Assembly (NCBI GenBank): GCA_963665075.1
Contig: OY762063.1
Span: 1,508,832-1,572,831 of the forward strand
Length of the DNA: 64,000 nt
DNA from: Dehalococcoidia bacterium
Lineage (GTDB): Bacteria; Chloroflexota; Dehalococcoidia; Lucifugimonadales; GCA-2712585
Direction of reading: 5' to 3'
The position numbers were made by a program, and so were the translations under genes. Each line of letters begins with the position of its first letter. Position 1 is the stretch's first letter. The notes beneath the pieces were generated by a model that saw only the letters and a list, made by a program, of their open reading frames with translations, ran no database searches and had not been told where the DNA came from. Shown here in pieces: positions 58-42,570 of the stretch.

Positions 58-130
58 TCTCCTGTAGCTCAGTGGATAGAGCAGTTCCCTTCCAAGGTTC
101 AGGGCGGGGGTTCGATTCCCCCCAGGGGCG
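58..130 (+). tRNA. Degenerate tRNA-like element (Arg-like body, UCC anticodon); possible pseudo-tRNA
   Basis: D arm GCTC-AGTGGATA-GAGC and T arm GGGGG-TTCGATT-CCCCC are intact; anticodon loop CTTCCAA. The anticodon stem has two U-U mismatches and the first acceptor pair is T-C. TATACT -10 box at 46-51. Confidence 0.6.
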
Positions 131-14560: not shown

Positions 14561-15322
14561 TTAAGTCTCCCTCCGCACCGGATTGCTCAGCACGCCGACG
14601 CCCTCAACCTCCACCTCGCAAACATCCCCGTCCTTCAACTCCGCCGGCTGGCCGGGCGTGCCCGTGAATATCATGTCACCCGGCTCCAGGGTGATGGTCT
14701 TGCTCACGTGGCTGATGACGGTAGGCAGGTCGAACAGGAACATCGCCGTCGTCTCCGCCTGCACCTCCTCGCCGTTCACCCGCGCCCGAAGCATCATGTC
14801 GCTGGGGTCCAGCCCCGTCACCATGAACGGCCCGGCGGGACTGAACGTGTCCGACGACTTGGCCCGCCACCACTGACCGTCGCCCCGCTGCCACTGCCGC
14901 GCGCTCACGTCGTTGCCGCAGGTGTAGCCCAACACGTGATCCAACGCCTCCTCCTTCGGCACGTTCTTGCACCGGTCCTTGATGATTGCGACCACCTCGC
15001 CCTCCTCGTCCACCCGCCCGTCGAAGGACTTGGGAATGACGATGGTGTCCCCAGGCCCAGCCAGAGACGTGGTCGTCTTGTAGAAGATGAGCGGCTCTTC
15101 CAAAGGCGCCCGGTCTCCCAGATGGCTGCGGTAGTTCAGCCCCACCGCGATTATCTTCCCCGGCACGCTGGGAGCCAGCAGCTTAACCTGGTCGAGGGTG
15201 TGGGTGTGGTCCGTAACTTCGTAATCCTCGAAGGGACTGGTGGTTATCTGCTTGATGGTGTCCCCTTCGACAACGCCGTAGTTGACGTCGCCGTGAGCCT
15301 CGTATCTTGCAAAGACGGTCAT
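14561..15322 (-). CDS. Fumarylacetoacetate hydrolase family protein
   Basis: GLNYRSH, EGE, GYTCGNDVSAR, LEPGDMIFTGTP. Confidence 0.92.
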   Translation of the reverse strand: MTVFARYEAHGDVNYGVVEGDTIKQITTSPFEDYEVTDHTHTLDQVKLLAPSVPGKIIAVGLNYRSHLGDRAPLEEPLIFYKTTTSLAGPGDTIVIPKSFDGRVDEEGEVVAIIKDRCKNVPKEEALDHVLGYTCGNDVSARQWQRGDGQWWRAKSSDTFSPAGPFMVTGLDPSDMMLRARVNGEEVQAETTAMFLFDLPTVISHVSKTITLEPGDMIFTGTPGQPAELKDGDVCEVEVEGVGVLSNPVRRET

Positions 15323-15426
15323 ATTTCATCCTCCAATTAGTGCCTTCCCCCAAGCCGACGAACCCGCCGGCTCCGGGATACGCTAATCGGTATTCTAGAG
15401 CCAACGCCAACAATAATCCACCCTTG

Positions 15427-15455
15427 TTGACGAACCGCCCAATCCGTAATACCAT
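15427..15455 (+). promoter_or_regulatory. Sigma70 promoter of the leader/ABC operon
   Basis: TTGACG-17nt-TACCAT. Confidence 0.75.
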
Positions 15456-15466
15456 TTGCTGACCCC

Positions 15467-15565
15467 ATGCCCGTCATAAACACAACTCCCACCCTCATCG
15501 AGGGCTTCACCTGAGGCCGCGCCTGGACGGGCGAGGTGCGTCCTGCAAAGCTCCGGCTTCCCTGA
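15467..15565 (+). CDS. Putative selenocysteine-containing leader peptide MPVINTTPTLIEGFT-U-GRAWTGEVRPAKLRLP
   Basis: ATG 11 nt after the -10 box; in-frame TGA at 15512-15514 followed immediately by a GC-rich hairpin (15514-15544); next in-frame TGA at 15563. Confidence 0.55.
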
Positions 15566-15593
15566 TTTCCCCCGGCGATTACCCCTTTAGCAG

Positions 15594-15656
15594 TTCTTCC
15601 CTCGTCTTCGCTCCAGGCTAGTTGCGTAGTGCACTAACCACGGACGAGGAGAAGAA
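15594..15656 (+). promoter_or_regulatory. SD-sequestering hairpin of the ABC substrate-binding gene
   Basis: TTCTTCCCTCGTC (15594-15606) pairs with GACGAGG-A-GAAGAA (15643-15656): 13 bp, one bulge, covering GAGGAG. Confidence 0.7.
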
Positions 15657-15657
15657 A

Positions 15658-16554
15658 TTGAATCCCCACAATCACGGTTGGAGACTCATCTTTATCGCGC
15701 CGATTCTGCTGCTCACGCTGGCGCTTTCGGCGGCCTGCGGCGACGACGATGAACCGACGCAAACCCTCTACATCGGCGGCATTCCCGACCAGGAAACCTC
15801 CCTGCTCGTCCGCCGCTTCGACGGCCTCGCCGACTACCTCAGCGACAAGCTAGGCGTCCCCGTCGAATACAAGCCCAGCATCGACTACGCCGCCGTCGTC
15901 ACCGCCTTCGCCAACGAAGACCTCCATCTGGCCTGGTTCGGCGCGCTCACCGGCGCCCAGGCCCGCAACCAGGCCCCCGGCGCCCAGGCCATCGCCCATC
16001 GTCCCATCGACGCCGAATTCGTCTCCGTCTATATCGTCCAGTCCGACCTTCCCGCCCAGGGTCTCCAAGACCTGAGCGGCCTGACCTTCACCTTCGGCAG
16101 CGTCAACTCCACCTCCGGCCACCTCATGCCCCGCCACTTCCTCCTCGAAGCGGGCATAGATCCGGACGCCGACCTGAACGGCCTCCCCAACTACTCCGGC
16201 TCCCACGACACCACCTGGAAGCTGGTGGAATCCGGCTCCTTCCAGGCCGGCGCCCTGAGTAAAACCGTTTGGGACAAGGCCGTTTCCGATGGCCGGGTGG
16301 ACACGTCGAAGGTGAGGCAGGTGGCCGTCACTCCCCCCTACTTCAACTACAACTGGTCCGTGCGCGGAGACCTGGACGATACCTTCGGCGAAGGGTTCGC
16401 CCAACGGCTTCAGGATGCCCTCCTTGCCATGCACGAGGACGCAAGCCAGGCCGACCTGCTCGAAGCCTTCCGAACGGACTCCTTCGTCGCCACCAGGAAC
16501 GAAAACTACGCCGCCATAGAGTCCGTAGCCAAGTCCTTGGGGATGCTTCAGTAA
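15658..16554 (+). CDS. PhnD-like ABC substrate-binding lipoprotein, putative selenate-transporter subfamily
   Basis: TTG start after GAGGAG; lipobox LSAAC; IPDQ, AWFGALTGAQAR, FTFGSVNSTSGHLMP, SGSHD, TPPYFNYNW. Confidence 0.8.
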   Translation: MNPHNHGWRLIFIAPILLLTLALSAACGDDDEPTQTLYIGGIPDQETSLLVRRFDGLADYLSDKLGVPVEYKPSIDYAAVVTAFANEDLHLAWFGALTGAQARNQAPGAQAIAHRPIDAEFVSVYIVQSDLPAQGLQDLSGLTFTFGSVNSTSGHLMPRHFLLEAGIDPDADLNGLPNYSGSHDTTWKLVESGSFQAGALSKTVWDKAVSDGRVDTSKVRQVAVTPPYFNYNWSVRGDLDDTFGEGFAQRLQDALLAMHEDASQADLLEAFRTDSFVATRNENYAAIESVAKSLGMLQ

Positions 16555-16555
16555 A

Positions 16556-17326
16556 ATGACGCGCAACGGCCAGCGTCCATATCCCATAGTCCGGTTGGAA
16601 GGGGTATCCAAGCGGTACAACGGATCCGCCGCCCTCTCGTCCCTAGACTTGGAAATTCGCGAAGGCGAACGGGTGGCCGTCCTAGGCCCCAGCGGCAGCG
16701 GCAAGACCACCCTCCTGCACCTCGTCGCGGGAATGGAGCAGCCCAACGACGGACGCGTGCTGCTGGCCGGACTGCCCCTCGCGTCCATGAGCGCCGGCCC
16801 CAAGCTGTCCGAACTGGTCGGAATGATGCACCAGCAGCTGGATCTCGTTCCCCATCTCTCCGTCAAGCACAACGTCCAGGCCGGACGACTCGGTAGATGG
16901 AGCCTCTGGAAGTCCCTTGTGTCCCTCGTGTCCCTGCGAGAACGAGAAATGGTGGAGCGAGCGCTGGAACGCGTCGGCATCCCCGAAAAGCTGCACGAAA
17001 GGACTTCCCACCTTTCCGGCGGCGAACAGCAGCGGGTGGCGATGGCCCGGCTGCTGTCCCAACAGTCGAGGGTGGTGCTGGCCGACGAACCCGTGGCCTC
17101 CCTCGACCCGGCCCGCGCCGAAGACCTCATGCACCTGCTGGTGTCCATCGTCGCCGAGTCCGGCAAAACCCTCATCGCCAGCGTTCACTCCACCCACCTG
17201 ACCCGCAAATACTTCTCCCGCGCCGTCGGACTCCGCAATGGAACGCTGGAGTTCGACCTGCCCGTGGAGCGTCTGACGGATGAGGCCCTCAACCGCCTCT
17301 ACGACATCACCCCAAGCCGCGCCTGA
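16556..17326 (+). CDS. PhnC-like ABC ATP-binding protein
   Basis: GPSGSGKTT, LSGGEQQRVA, LADEPVASLDP. Confidence 0.9.
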   Translation: MTRNGQRPYPIVRLEGVSKRYNGSAALSSLDLEIREGERVAVLGPSGSGKTTLLHLVAGMEQPNDGRVLLAGLPLASMSAGPKLSELVGMMHQQLDLVPHLSVKHNVQAGRLGRWSLWKSLVSLVSLREREMVERALERVGIPEKLHERTSHLSGGEQQRVAMARLLSQQSRVVLADEPVASLDPARAEDLMHLLVSIVAESGKTLIASVHSTHLTRKYFSRAVGLRNGTLEFDLPVERLTDEALNRLYDITPSRA

Positions 17327-18116
17327 GCAGAGCGGCGGCTTCTTCCGCGGGCGGGGTTTCCTCACTCTGCTGCTGGTCGCCGCCCTCCTTTGGAGCCTGA
17401 CCTCCCTTTCGTGGGGAAGCTCCCCCGTCCACCCCGGCGGCCTCGCCTCCATCGGCCAGTTCTTCCAGGCCGCCCTTCGGCCCGAACTATCAGCCGAATT
17501 TCTTACCCTCACCCTCAGTTCCGCCTGGAAGACCGTCGCCTATGCGGTGGCCGGAATTTGCCTCGCCGTAATCCTCGGATTCCCCCTCGGCGTCCTGGCC
17601 TCCGGCGTTCTTGCCCGCCGATGGGCCAGCCGAATCCCCGGCGTCGCCGCCTTCCGCTTCCTATTGGGCTGTATGCGCGCCGTCCACGAACTCATCTGGG
17701 CCTGGTTCTTCGTCGCCGCCGTCGGCCTCTCCCCCGCCGCCGCCATCTTCGCCCTCGCCATCCCCTACGCCGGCATCCTCGGCCGCATCTACGCCGACAT
17801 CCTCAACGATGTTCCCAACCCGCCCCTCCAGGCCCTCCGGGCCTCCGGCGCGTCCGAGACCAAAGTCCTCCTCTACGGACGTCTCCCGATGGCCCTCCCC
17901 GACATGCTCAGCTACACCTTCTACCGCTTCGAATGCGCCATCCGCTCCGCCGCCATCATGGGCTTCGTCGGCGTCGGCGGCCTGGGTATGCAGATACAGC
18001 TTTCCCTCTCAGACCTCTACTTCAATGAAGTCTGGACGCTGCTCTACGCACTGGTCGCCCTGGTGCTTCTGGTTGACCTCTGGAGTTCCTGGGTCAGGAG
18101 GTATCTAACCTCGTGA
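17280..18116 (+). CDS. PhnE-like ABC permease (start uncertain)
   Basis: RAVHELIWA, YRFECAIRSAAIMGFVGVGGLG. Confidence 0.88.
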   Translation: MRPSTASTTSPQAAPEQSGGFFRGRGFLTLLLVAALLWSLTSLSWGSSPVHPGGLASIGQFFQAALRPELSAEFLTLTLSSAWKTVAYAVAGICLAVILGFPLGVLASGVLARRWASRIPGVAAFRFLLGCMRAVHELIWAWFFVAAVGLSPAAAIFALAIPYAGILGRIYADILNDVPNPPLQALRASGASETKVLLYGRLPMALPDMLSYTFYRFECAIRSAAIMGFVGVGGLGMQIQLSLSDLYFNEVWTLLYALVALVLLVDLWSSWVRRYLTS

Positions 18117-18979
18117 CGTTACTCAAACTCGCAACCTCCCGTCGAGCAATCAGGCCAAACCCGTTGTGGCTATCGGCGATGGCGTTCTTCGCGTTGGCCT
18201 GCGCTTCATGGATATACCTGCTCTTCGTCGCCGACGGCGGTTTCCGAGAGCTATTCCGTGGAGAAACGTGGCGGCAGGCGGGGGAGTTTCTTGGCCAACT
18301 TGCGGGCGCGGGCGTCGAAGGAACCCCCACATTCCTCCAGTGGGACGAGTGGTTGGAAGCGGGCGCGCTGGCCTACGACACCCTTGCCATGAGCGTAATC
18401 GCGATGGGAATAGCCGGCGTCGGCGCGCTCCTGACCTTCCTGCCCGCCGCCCGAAACGTGGCGACGGGGGAACTAGCCGCATCCGCCTCCTTCCCATCCC
18501 GCGCGCTCTACTACCTGCTGCGGGGGTTGTTCATCTTCAGCCGCGGCATCCCTGAACTCATCATCGCGATGATTGTCGTCTTCGCCTTCAGCCCCGGCAT
18601 CCTCGCCGGCGCCATCGCCCTCGGCATCCACAACTACGGCATCCTGGGCAAGCTCTCCGCAGAGGTGGTTGAAGACCTGGACCCCCGTTCCGCCCGCGCC
18701 CTCCGAACCTCCGGCTCCGGCGTCTTCCAGATGCTCGCCTACGGCATCCTCCCGCAAGCCCTCCCCCAGTTCCTCACCTTCCTCCTCTACCGATGGGAAG
18801 TAGTCATCCGCACCACCGTCGTCGTCGGACTGGTCAGCGCCGGCGGACTTGGGCGCGAATTTCTCCTGGACATGAGCCTCTTCCGCTACACCGACGTCGC
18901 CCTGCTGCTGATCTGGTATCTGATTCTCGTAGTCTTCGTAGACCTGACCACCATGTTCCTCCGCCGCCTCGCCCGCTAA
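18113..18979 (+). CDS. PhnE-like ABC permease
   Basis: RGIPELI, YRWEVVIRTTVVVGLVSAGGLG. Confidence 0.88.
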   Translation: MTLLKLATSRRAIRPNPLWLSAMAFFALACASWIYLLFVADGGFRELFRGETWRQAGEFLGQLAGAGVEGTPTFLQWDEWLEAGALAYDTLAMSVIAMGIAGVGALLTFLPAARNVATGELAASASFPSRALYYLLRGLFIFSRGIPELIIAMIVVFAFSPGILAGAIALGIHNYGILGKLSAEVVEDLDPRSARALRTSGSGVFQMLAYGILPQALPQFLTFLLYRWEVVIRTTVVVGLVSAGGLGREFLLDMSLFRYTDVALLLIWYLILVVFVDLTTMFLRRLAR

Positions 18980-20802
18980 CCATTCCCCGCCAACGCATCC
19001 ACCAGTGCCGGCAAATACTCCTCCCACGAGCCGAGAATGCAATAATCCGCCGCCTGAAAGATGGGATGACGCCGCGTGGTGTTGATGCCCACCACCGTAC
19101 CCGCCTTCTGTATGCCCACGACGTGATTGAAGTCGCCCCGTATGCCCACCGCAATATACAACCGAGGCGCGATAGCCCGCCCCGTCAGCCCCACCTGCAT
19201 CTGCTTCGGCAGCCAGCCCACGTCGGTGACGCTGCGGGTGGCCGCGATGGAAGCGCCCAGCCGCGCCGCCAACTCCCGAATCTGCGGCAAAGCTTCCGGC
19301 CCGCCGATGCCCATGCCCACGCCTATCACCACCTCCGCCCGCTCCAACTCCGGCCCACCCGCGTCCTCCTCAACCACGCTGGAAATCAGCCGCAGCGGGT
19401 CCGGCCCCTCCTGCTCGTCCTCCACGTAGTGGGGAGATTCCCCGTCGACATACTTCTCCTCAATCGGCGCGATGGGATTCAACAACCCTGGCCGCAGCGT
19501 CACCAGGTACGGCTTGGTCTTCGACAGTATCGGCGCGACCACGTTCCCGCCAAGGGCCGGCTTCAACTGCACCAGCCGCCCTTCCTCGTCCAACTCCAGA
19601 TCTATGCAATCGCCCGTCAGCCCCAGTGAAAGCCGCGCCGCGACCCGCGACGCCAGATCTCTCCCGTTGGCCGTGGACGAAAACAGCGCGGCGTATGGCA
19701 GGTAGTCTTCCAACGCCCGCGCGAACTTCGACGCCGTCAGCGGACTGGTCGGATGCCTTCCCTCCCGCCACGAAAGGTCCAGAACCAGGTCCGCGCCGTA
19801 CCGCGCCAGCGTCGAAATCTCCCCGTCGGAAAACTCCTCCACCTGCACCGCCACCACCTCGCAGCGCAGCTCCTCCGCCAATTCCCGCGCCTTGCCCAGG
19901 TTCTCCAACGTCGCGCGGCGAATCCCCCCCTCGGACCTCTCCGCCACCACCCACAGCGGCGGATTCCCCGTTCCCCTATGCCTCCACCACGCCAAATCCG
20001 CCCCAGTCTCATCAACCGCCGAGGGCCGATTCCGAATCCCCTCCGCCACCGTCCGCGCCGCCACCGTTGGGTTTGAATCTTCTATGACGACCCCCAACCG
20101 CCGCGATTCCACCAGCCGGATGTCCTCAACCCACGTGGGCGAACCCGCCGCGCCGAATTGGGACGAATCCGACGAAAGCCCCGACGCCGACACCTCCTCC
20201 ACCGGACGCTCCCGCGCCTCCATCAACACCCGCCGCCGGGCGTACCGCTCCTCGCTCAAGCCCTCCGTCGCCGTAATCAGGGCGGGCAGAGTCACCTCCA
20301 GAACTTCGTGTCCTTCTTCCGTTTCCCGCTCCACGACGACGCTGTTGGACTCAGCCTTGTACTCCATCTTGCGGGCGCGGCTTACGTGGGGGATGCCGAG
20401 AATCTCCGCCAGCTCCGGCCCCACCTGGCCCGTCTCGGCGTCGGTGCTGTTCCGACCGCACAGGATTAGGTCGAAGCCCCGGTCTTTCAGCGCCAACGCC
20501 AGCGTCCGGGAAGTCGCCAGCGTGTCCGAACCCGCCATGACGCGGTCGGAGATGATGACGCCGTGGTCCGCGCCGACGGCGAGGGCGTGAGCCAAGACTT
20601 CCTTCGCCTGCGGCGGCCCCATAGTCACCGCCGTCACCTCCCCGCCGACCTCATCCTTCAACTCAATCGCCCTACCCAGCGCGATGAGGTCAAAGACATT
20701 CATCTCCAACGGGACGCCCTCCCGCTGGATGGTCTTCTTCTCGTAGTCGAACTCGATTCTGGCGAGTACGGGCACCTGCTTGATGCAAACGGCTATCTTC
20801 AT
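18976..20802 (-). CDS. Fused electron transfer flavoprotein beta-alpha
   Basis: N-terminal MKIAVCIKQVP, GSDTLATS, DAETGQVGP; C-terminal QVGLTGRAIAPRLYIAVGIRG. Confidence 0.9.
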   Translation of the reverse strand: MKIAVCIKQVPVLARIEFDYEKKTIQREGVPLEMNVFDLIALGRAIELKDEVGGEVTAVTMGPPQAKEVLAHALAVGADHGVIISDRVMAGSDTLATSRTLALALKDRGFDLILCGRNSTDAETGQVGPELAEILGIPHVSRARKMEYKAESNSVVVERETEEGHEVLEVTLPALITATEGLSEERYARRRVLMEARERPVEEVSASGLSSDSSQFGAAGSPTWVEDIRLVESRRLGVVIEDSNPTVAARTVAEGIRNRPSAVDETGADLAWWRHRGTGNPPLWVVAERSEGGIRRATLENLGKARELAEELRCEVVAVQVEEFSDGEISTLARYGADLVLDLSWREGRHPTSPLTASKFARALEDYLPYAALFSSTANGRDLASRVAARLSLGLTGDCIDLELDEEGRLVQLKPALGGNVVAPILSKTKPYLVTLRPGLLNPIAPIEEKYVDGESPHYVEDEQEGPDPLRLISSVVEEDAGGPELERAEVVIGVGMGIGGPEALPQIRELAARLGASIAATRSVTDVGWLPKQMQVGLTGRAIAPRLYIAVGIRGDFNHVVGIQKAGTVVGINTTRRHPIFQAADYCILGSWEEYLPALVDALAGNG

Positions 20803-28198: not shown

Positions 28199-28273
28199 GC
28201 GGGCGTAACTCAGTGGCAGAGTGCTTGCTTCCCAAGCAAGACGTCGTGGGTTCGAATCCCATCGCCCGCTCCA
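28199..28273 (+). tRNA. tRNA-Gly(CCC)
   Basis: GCGGGCG acceptor, CTTGC-TTCCCAA-GCAAG anticodon arm, GGTTCGAATCCC, encoded CCA. Confidence 0.95.
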
Positions 28274-30440: not shown

Positions 30441-30716
30441 ATGTGGAAAGTTAACGTTGACATCGTCTATTGCGTACCTTGACAGTATCACGCGACCGCC
30501 ACGTGGATGGCGAATGAGTTCTACCGATACTTCGGCGCCGACATCGGCATTTCTTTGACTCCAGGGGCCAACGGCCGTTTGGAGGTCTACCTGGACGGCG
30601 AGAAGATCTTCGACCGTTCGGAAGAAGACGGCAAGTACCCCGACCTCACGAGGGTGAAGGAGCTTCGCGACGTAATTCAGGCGAAGGTGGACTCCCTGGC
30701 GGTAGCCGCCGCCTAG
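30441..30716 (+). CDS. Rdx/SelW-family selenoprotein (CxxU)
   Basis: MWKVNVDIVYCVP-TGA(30480-30482)-QYHATATW..LTPGANGRLEVYLDGEKIFDR..KYPD; hairpin CGCCA-CGTGGA-TGGCG shortly after the UGA. Confidence 0.88.
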
Positions 30717-42496: not shown

Positions 42497-42570
42497 TCGG
42501 GGAGCCGGGATTTGAACCCGGGGCCTCTACGTCCCGAACGTAGCGCGCTGCCAAACTGCGCCACTCCCCG
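42497..42570 (-). tRNA. tRNA-Pro(CGG)
   Basis: CGGGGAG acceptor, CTACG-TTCGGGA-CGTAG, GGTTCAAATCCC; CCA not encoded. Confidence 0.95.

Follow-up and report, generated by a model that had tools for sequence, protein, structure and literature searches.

We analysed a short RNA leader that precedes an ATP-binding cassette (ABC) importer operon in the genome of a Dehalococcoidia bacterium (2.7 Mb, a single contig). The leader lies in a stretch of 64,000 nucleotides (nt), hereafter the window (contig OY762063.1, positions 1,508,832 to 1,572,831), and coordinates below are those of the window unless a contig is named. A 335-nt spacer separates the operon from a divergent FAA-hydrolase gene (14561–15322, – strand). 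Positions 15427–15660 are the promoter and 5′ leader of the operon, whose substrate-binding protein (SBP) belongs to the NCBIfam family TIGR04553. The leader contains a short upstream open reading frame (uORF) that ends at a UGA codon, and a sequence-only reading of this DNA had proposed that the codon senses selenocysteine (Sec) and, through alternative RNA helices, controls the Shine-Dalgarno (SD) sequence of the SBP gene. The features of the leader and of the operon are as follows.

15427–15455, + strand: promoter with –35 box TTGACG (15427–15432), a 17-nt spacer and –10 box TACCAT (15450–15455), from a promoter scan
15467–15514, + strand: uORF with ATG at 15467, 15 codons (MPVINTTPTLIEGFT) and UGA at 15512–15514, from the sequence and its homologues
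15503–15514, + strand: conserved core GGC UUC ACC UGA (Gly-Phe-Thr-stop), followed by G, from codon counts in 56 leaders
15514–15544, + strand: local hairpin, AGGCCGCGCCU (15514–15524) with AGGUGCGUCCU (15534–15544), loop GGACGGGCG, from folding
15515–15565, + strand: read-through frame, running 16 codons past the first UGA and closed by an in-frame UGA at 15563–15565, from frame comparison
15521–15536, + strand: anti-anti-SD segment (M2) GCCUGGACGGGCGAGG, partner at 15600–15618, from the minimum free energy (MFE) fold of a truncated transcript
15594–15618, + strand: anti-SD UUCUUCCCUCGUC (15594–15606) and motif M3, UCCAGGC (15612–15618), from folding and conservation
15643–15660, + strand: SD of the SBP gene, GACGAGGAGAAGAA (15643–15656), and its likely TTG start codon (15658–15660), from the sequence and the signal peptide
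15658–16554, + strand: substrate-binding lipoprotein of the PhnD superfamily, from PF12974 and TIGR04553
16556–17326, + strand: PhnC-like ATPase, from family matches, below the phosphonate equivalog cut-off
17280–18116 and 18113–18979, + strand: two PhnE-like permeases, from family matches, neither reaching its phosphonate equivalog cut-off

The binding protein scores 323.1 bits against TIGR04553 (‘putative selenate ABC transporter substrate-binding protein’), above the cut-off of 250, and 132.6 bits against the PhnD equivalog TIGR03431, below its cut-off of 261.1. We take TTG 15658–15660 as the likeliest start of its gene because a lipoprotein signal peptide comes next. The promoter at 15427 is the only sigma-70-like site detected by the promoter scan in 15200–15800 (0.2 expected). 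The ATG of the uORF stands 11 nt past the –10 box, giving a 5′ untranslated region (UTR) of about 4 nt, and the uORF is near-leaderless. Promoter, uORF, UGA and the end of read-through had all been placed at these positions in the sequence-only reading, and we found each of them there, with the first in-frame stop after the UGA lying 16 codons on, at 15563–15565.

Conservation of the uORF and its UGA

Homologous transporter loci were gathered from relatives (20), from GTDB species genomes (80, the best 80 of 312 relatives) and from a class-wide sample (29), and the non-redundant set comprised 107 loci for which 300 nt or more of upstream sequence was available. These were searched for a TTGAC box 22–50 nt before an ATG or GTG, opening a uORF of 7–21 codons that ends in [FY][TV]-stop-[GC], with UAA and UAG permitted as stops. 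The combined promoter and uORF pattern was matched at 57 of the 107 loci (ATG start in 45, GTG in 12), and the stop was UGA in all 57 even though the two other stops were permitted. Two more leaders, L084 and L122, lack the strict promoter. Leader variants of the form FT-UAA, FT-UAG or FT-UGY were absent from the 77 loci inspected for them. A metagenome scan with the class-1 pattern and a free stop gave at least 80 matches; the 80 listed were all due to chance, and the scan is uninformative on variants of the UGA.

Residue usage at the end of the uORF was counted in 56 leaders: Gly is found in 54, Phe and Thr in 55 each, UGA in all 56 and a following G in 52, and since Phe, Thr and the stop are partly fixed by the collecting pattern, some of their invariance arises by construction, which has to be set against the argument developed below. 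The pattern did not prescribe the Gly, which of the stops closes the uORF, how far away the promoter lies or whether the frame stays open. The core is spelled with several codons (GGC, GGT, GGA or GGG for Gly; TTC or TTT for Phe; ACC, ACT or ACG for Thr). A TTGAC + TAnnAT promoter is kept ahead of the uORF in the other leaders as well. Sequences following the UGA, by comparison, form at least seven classes, between which no alignment is possible. In all of these RNA lineage classes the start codon of the uORF stands 6–11 nt past the –10 box and has no SD, an arrangement compatible with leaderless translation.

In all 12 leaders from the same genus the uORF is kept together with its UGA and the RNA directly after it, with diverged flanks. 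What they retain is the promoter, the last three codons and a nearly invariant block of 35 nt after the UGA; there are no indels between ATG and UGA, and in one leader the in-frame ATG is displaced by two codons towards the UGA. Upstream of the transporter genes, TTYACN+TGA was matched at 48 of 77 loci, as compared with 7 matches in 369,752 background bases. When the strict promoter and motif pattern was run over 49 genomes, it was found in 43, each time at the leader, with one stray match, and the reversed control gave 4. The leader is a dedicated single-copy cis element, found before this operon alone. Folding of the whole 211-nt leader of the window is no better than that of shuffled sequences (z = –1.35), and it is the comparison of homologous loci that makes the element more than chance. 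We conclude, as far as sequence comparison can tell, that the leader is not a chance feature and that it represents a family of at least 57 members.

Two variants stand apart. The shortest leader, with a 7-codon uORF (MSGAGFT-UGA), is found in genus g131 (L276, L280–L282, L286 and L287), where a hairpin CCACUC-CGGGCU-GAGUGG lies about 15 nt past the UGA. L107 carries, about 250–150 nt ahead of the SBP start, what looks by eye like a degenerate relative of the class-4 leader: the UGA position is AGA, Gly-Phe-Thr is lost and the frame continues as the read-through frame would (VLACG vs VHACG). This element may be a decaying leader.

RNA pairings and possible translation past the UGA

The local hairpin begins at the A of the UGA and pairs position 15514+i with 15544–i, forming 10 of 11 pairs at –17.2 kcal/mol; an inner mini-hairpin, CGCCU-GGAC-GGGCG, can form instead within 15514–15544. 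Within the genus the hairpin is almost invariant: indels fall in the loop, and changes from U.G to U-A and from C-G to U-G keep the pairs. More widely, 19 of 28 sequence clusters have their most stable hairpin beginning no more than 3 nt from the UGA. Further downstream, the anti-SD pairs with the SD in the MFE fold of the full-length leader (–21.6 kcal/mol as a duplex, –24.6 kcal/mol as a hairpin), and this duplex stands out from shuffled sequences with z = –3.4. When the transcript is truncated at 15640, before the SD, the MFE fold is a different one, the long-range helix between 15521–15536 and 15600–15618 (duplex –27.1 kcal/mol). The window leader, like class 3, can thus adopt mutually exclusive pairings, one of which overlaps the region that a ribosome at the UGA would cover. 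The sequence-only reading had described all three helices, the hairpin at the UGA, the lock on the SD and the helix that excludes both, and each was recovered by folding.

Comparable pairings occur in leaders of other classes. GCCUGG stands 9 or 18 nt past the UGA in classes 1, 3 and 4, and CCAGG(C/U) lies 85–150 nt beyond it, in a pyrimidine-rich stretch. In class 3, RNAalifold pairs the end of the uORF (GGYUUCAC), GCCUGG and AGAGG with the distal stretch over 32 pairs. This helix is 93.2% paired, against 34–52% when the partner is slid by 1–3 columns, and seven of its pairs have changed on both sides, a number that none of 500 shuffles reached. Changes in the distal strand within the genus are mostly C to U opposite G, and one compensatory double change, G-C to U-A, was read by eye in the long-range helix of L046/L052. 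Of the checks on orthologous leaders that the sequence-only reading had proposed, conservation of the uORF and of its UGA is borne out, and paired changes are seen in class 3. The pairing patterns argue that the three-part layout of anti-anti-SD, anti-SD and SD is real and recurs in lineages with different sequences.

Intrinsic terminators were sought in the window leader with a terminator scan, which returned none. In class 4 (L086, L104, L114 and L121) a U-tract, GGGUUUUC, lies behind the post-UGA hairpin, 45–55 nt past the UGA, and terminator scans of this class gave weak 5-bp candidates only, in two leaders, one of them L104. It would be a guess that class 4 attenuates transcription rather than translation. 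A small hairpin with a CCGU loop directly follows CCAGG(C/U) in class 3 (L060–L080, GCAC-ACCGUGA-GUGC) and in class 4 (L086–L122, GGUA-AGCCGUUGGAC-UACC), and is missing from the window leader. Searches against Rfam 15 gave no relevant match for the window (E-values up to 10, and also with gathering thresholds) or for 15 other loci (E-values up to 1).

The frame of the uORF was then compared with the two other frames beyond the UGA. A stop is reached in it within 24 codons in 26 of the 28 clusters (15 in the +1 frame and 10 in the +2 frame), and 14–21 codons on in 18 of them (8 and 5 in the other two frames). All 14 class-1 leaders have an in-frame stop at 15–20 codons, and TGA, TAG and TAA are all used for it. 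Three leaders (L037, L054 and L072) carry a 1-nt insertion after GCCUGGAC, and the new frames close at 15, 17 and 18 codons. Since the in-frame stop is retained despite indels, translation beyond the UGA is apparently frequent enough for selection to act on it. Judging from these frames, ribosomes seem to pass the UGA.

Two other accounts of the UGA were considered and rejected: +1/–1 frameshifting at ACC UGA G (no slippery re-pairing, by inspection) and reassignment of UGA (ordinary genes of the window use UGA as their stop under table 11).

Selenium and the proposed fate of the ribosome at the UGA

The genome holds the machinery for Sec insertion that the proposal depends on, namely selA, selB, selD (with an in-frame TGA) and tRNA-Sec. 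The CxxU gene that the sequence-only reading had taken as a sign of Sec decoding proved to match a selenoprotein family, scoring 59.8 bits against Pfam PF10262 when its TGA is read as Sec.

30441–30692, + strand: Rdx-family (SelW/SelT/SelH-like) ORF of 84 amino acids (aa) with a CVPU motif, TGA at 30480–30482, from PF10262

selD is itself a selenoprotein here (G000:C1:1268677-1269594, L011) and in 30 related genomes (L303–L332), and bears one TGA in all 31 related genomes where it was found. Its Sec insertion sequence (SECIS), GGACCUG-GUN-CAGGUCC, is conserved and lies about 19 nt past the UGA; the apical loop begins 27 nt past the UGA in 21 of 30 genomes, with a range of 16–33, and four genomes of family f80 have a hairpin GGUCC-GGG-GGACC instead. 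In 13 of the 28 leader clusters (classes 3, 4 and 7) the apical loop of the leader hairpin is 17–27 nt past the UGA, within the range of the selD element. Of 48 leader-bearing genomes, 47 have selB above its cut-off. selD is present in 32 of 34 genomes with the transporter and in 275 of 367 without it, a weak enrichment among genomes that are related to one another and of which two are incomplete (the total of 307 out of 401 counts in an unpublished genome, G348).

Three in-frame TGAs with downstream hairpins were also picked by eye from their motifs, at G000:C1 +1986548 (FWTYCU-INC), –2401632 (NNTPGU) and –1578176 (VGDUGSCS); these putative candidates comprise a Prx-like, a Trx-like and a ‘GDU’ type. 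A hunt for in-frame-TGA genes by GC3 periodicity returned 488 candidates and was too noisy for use.

The transporter is linked to selenium from two sides. Apart from the TIGR04553 match of its binding protein, loci without the leader offer a second indication: a LysR-like gene adjoins 10 of 31 no-leader loci and none of 46 leader loci. Where the LysR gene is divergent (L071, L077, L096, L103, L105, L117 and L123; upstream, – strand), the regulator has NF040786, a selenium metabolism-associated LysR family, as its best NCBIfam match in seven of seven tested no-leader loci. Three of these scores exceed the cut-off of 250, one is 248 and three are 212–232. Gene content at the loci examined argues that leader and LysR are mutually exclusive regulators of one transporter family. 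Because the leader is replaced elsewhere by a selenium-associated LysR, selenium is most likely its input, and the selenium connection assumed for the transporter in the sequence-only reading gains support. Many of the no-leader loci have a promoter- or operator-like string, ATTGACTA...ATTAATATT, right before the binding-protein gene.

A specific importer for selenium would fill a gap. A 2022 review (PMC9312934) describes a specific high-affinity selenium transporter as still unknown in prokaryotes, and a 2026 review (PMC13188914) likewise says that prokaryotes have no known specific high-affinity system for the uptake of selenium. For Methanococcus, putative transporters regulated by selenium are reported in PMC11097638, none of them confirmed with mutants.

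These data can be assembled into a mechanism. We see about an even chance that the leader attenuates translation in a ribosome-dependent manner and senses selenium status at its UGA. The near-leaderless 15-codon uORF would be translated as the RNA emerges, and translation would come to its end at the invariant Gly-Phe-Thr-UGA. The stretch that begins in the last codons of the uORF and reaches some 30 nt beyond the UGA would be able to form the local hairpin that starts at the UGA; alternatively, it would pair with the pyrimidine-rich anti-SD 85–105 nt downstream. An anti-SD that is not captured in this way would sequester the SD of the binding-protein gene. The fold would be picked by the fate of the ribosome at the UGA, be it quick release by release factor 2 (RF2), dwelling, or Sec decoding followed by a 16-codon run. 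Selenium status would be the signal, through competition of Sec-tRNA(Sec)/SelB with RF2 at the UGA, and the operon would be OFF when selenium is replete and ON when it is scarce. This direction is suggested by homeostatic logic and by the folds of the window leader, truncated as against full-length. As a speculation, Gly-Phe-Thr might weaken or slow release by RF2, so that the UGA becomes ‘hungry’.

In its full form, the proposal describes a true Sec attenuator: the UGA after Gly-Phe-Thr would be hungry for Sec-tRNA(Sec)/SelB, decoding and run-on would mean off, and RF2 release or stalling under selenium scarcity would mean on. To this version we assign slightly less than an even chance. Sec sensing as such is plausible rather than proven, and could fall either way. 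We infer translation of the uORF, insertion of Sec, the direction of regulation and the role of Gly-Phe-Thr. From the Sec-sensing attenuator as originally conceived, the anatomy, the Sec machinery, the selenium link and the in-frame stop emerge strengthened, and the SECIS spacing and the folding switch weakened.

Several observations weigh against Sec sensing. Read-through is only 1–4 codons long in class 2 (UGA GCG UGA) and class 5 (UGA GGC UGA, once UAG), and L084, L085 and class 3b likewise end within 1–4 codons past the UGA; such early closing is seen in 5 of 28 clusters, and L080 has no stop in the read-through frame for 219 codons. The idea that a reading-through ribosome occupies 15521–15536 fits poorly with classes that read just 1–4 codons. 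The hairpin of the window class was proposed to be a SECIS, and its spacing is unlike that of the organism's own elements: its apical loop begins 12 nt past the UGA, compared with 27 nt in selD. Rfam SECIS models found no match on the leader, a weak negative given that they also missed the selenoprotein at 30441. Gly-Phe-Thr is conserved as strongly as the UGA, which lies outside the known rules of Sec insertion; the conservation resembles that of a nascent-peptide arrest motif and may hint at a peptide or RF2 effect at least as much as at SelB. selB is present in 53 of 61 relatives irrespective of the transporter, and since selB and selD are common with or without it, their co-occurrence hardly discriminates. 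Moreover, ‘selenate’ as the putative substrate is a database hypothesis that comes with the name of TIGR04553.

The folding switch meets difficulties as well. Equilibrium folding with a ribosome mask hardly changes SD access in the window leader (from 0.15 to 0.13 with the ribosome at the UGA and to 0.14 at the next stop), and over 49 leaders SD access rose by more than 0.1 in 5 and went down in 4. Duplexes with z < –2 against shuffled sequences were obtained for the long-range helix in 11 of 48 leaders and for the pairing of its partner with the SD in 12 of 48; the long-range helix of the window itself has z = –0.5. As there is no equilibrium effect on the SD, we infer that any switch must be kinetic and act co-transcriptionally.

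The sole universal feature, Gly-Phe-Thr-UGA, best supports an explanation that does without Sec. TnaC is arrested at a UGA and regulates an operon with a permease gene, and in a similar way a Gly-Phe-Thr chain, with or without a small molecule near the peptidyl-transferase centre, would slow release by RF2. The dwelling ribosome would cover the anti-anti-SD, and the anti-SD would then close the SD. The transported substrate, or a compound derived from it, could act as the signal and so give negative feedback; the stalled ribosome might instead block Rho at the downstream C-rich tract. Consistent with an arrest peptide, Gly-Phe-Thr is kept at the amino-acid level with synonymous codons, with the remaining peptide and the RNA varying by class, and the stop is always the RF2-specific UGA. 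With uORFs as short as seven codons (MSGAGFT), only the C-terminal residues can matter, and the motif persists where the position of the hairpin or a read-through of 1–4 codons suits Sec decoding poorly. However, pure termination gives no reason for an in-frame stop 14–24 codons on, although leaky read-through might, and three conserved residues are few for a metabolite pocket. The synonymy may in part be an RNA-level effect, because C/U changes at third positions also keep the G.U pairs of class 3. Finally, an arrest peptide ignores the selenium link of the transporter and the replacement by LysR, though a selenium compound as ligand would be compatible with them. We consider this explanation, the strongest of the alternatives, unlikely, if far from negligible.

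Conserved RNA blocks shared by otherwise different classes (GGNUUYACNUGAG, GCCUGG, CCAGG(C/U) and the CCGU hairpin) would be expected of a sensor acting at the RNA level, either a riboswitch or a binding site for a protein such as SelB, with the uORF either translated constitutively, as a timer or RNA unwinder, or staying untranslated. As in E. coli selAB, SelB/Sec-tRNA on the hairpin would then stabilise the OFF fold without decoding. It agrees with this idea that GGYUUCAC at the uORF end contributes a strand to the long-range helix of class 3 and, in classes 1 and 5, to local helices, and that the CCGU-loop hairpin follows M3 in classes 3 and 4; but that hairpin is absent from the window leader, and no Rfam family is matched. 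A purely RNA-level sensor is also at odds with the fixed distance from the –10 box to the start codon and with a frame that stays open in every leader despite lengths of 7–21 codons. GGA and GGG codons would break the proposed pair and yet keep the glycine, and the downstream in-frame stop is conserved, so that we think an RNA-level sensor improbable. The invariant UGA, the in-frame stop downstream and the GCCUGG that is always in frame past the UGA, reading ‘AW’, could instead point to a small functional selenopeptide of about 32 aa (...GFT-U-GRAWTG...), co-expressed with the transporter and not a regulatory leader. Yet conservation does not extend to the read-through peptide: in L037, L054 and L072 the frame changes after ‘AWTG’ with the RNA unchanged, several classes read through 1–4 codons only, and the 32-aa product has no NCBIfam family match. 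We regard such a selenopeptide as highly improbable.

Elsewhere in the window, an ORF of 608 aa (18976–20802, – strand) convergent with the transporter operon has two electron-transfer flavoprotein (ETF) domain stretches and an ETF-alpha FAD-binding domain, and resembles a fused ETF. Three tRNA genes lie at 58–130 (+), 28199–28270 (+) and 42497–42570 (–).

Relation to known regulatory systems

Full-text literature searches found no description of a leader attenuator built on a Sec codon or UGA, or of a regulator of the TIGR04553 transporter. These searches and the conservation across the homologous loci argue that the leader-peptide attenuator itself is real and undescribed, and it may be the first attenuator built on a recoded stop codon. 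If the UGA is indeed read as Sec, classical attenuation would be extended to a recoded stop codon, and the TIGR04553 ABC system would be the specific prokaryotic selenium importer that reviews call missing. If it is not, GFT-UGA would be a new, very short release-arrest motif. The only invariant parts of the leader are the UGA codon and the three codons before it, and the leader offers a testable handle on bacterial selenium sensing and uptake.

Attenuation of trp, his, leu and pheA shares with this leader a short ORF on which a ribosome at a regulatory codon selects between exclusive pairings, and the controlled genes supply the sensed compound. The sensed codon here, however, would be a UGA read as stop or Sec and not a sense codon, the output in the window class is sequestration of the SD with no intrinsic terminator, the mRNA is leaderless, and the residues before the codon, Gly-Phe-Thr, are conserved. 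Leaders of the TnaC/SpeFL type likewise have a C-terminal motif right before a UGA, an importer-containing operon and a C-rich tract next to it. They differ from the present one in that here only three residues are conserved, the uORF is as short as seven codons and an in-frame stop lies downstream.

Bacterial SECIS elements resemble the leader in having a stable hairpin at or adjoining the UGA, in the presence of the Sec machinery and, for some classes, in a loop 17–27 nt away. In the window class, by contrast, the loop is 12 nt past the UGA and lacks the GUN triloop on the GGACCUG stem of the group's selD. The 5′ UTR of E. coli selAB carries a SECIS-like element, which differs from the leader in having no decoded UGA. 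The LysR_Se/HrsM-type regulators (NF040786) serve the same transporter family in other Dehalococcoidia and probably respond to the same input signal, but they are protein transcription factors and not cis-acting RNA or peptide elements. In ermC and cat attenuation, as proposed for this leader, the ribosome translating a short leader ORF refolds a downstream helix in which the SD of the following gene is hidden; those systems sense antibiotics during elongation, whereas here the stop codon is critical and the gene controlled is that of a nutrient importer.

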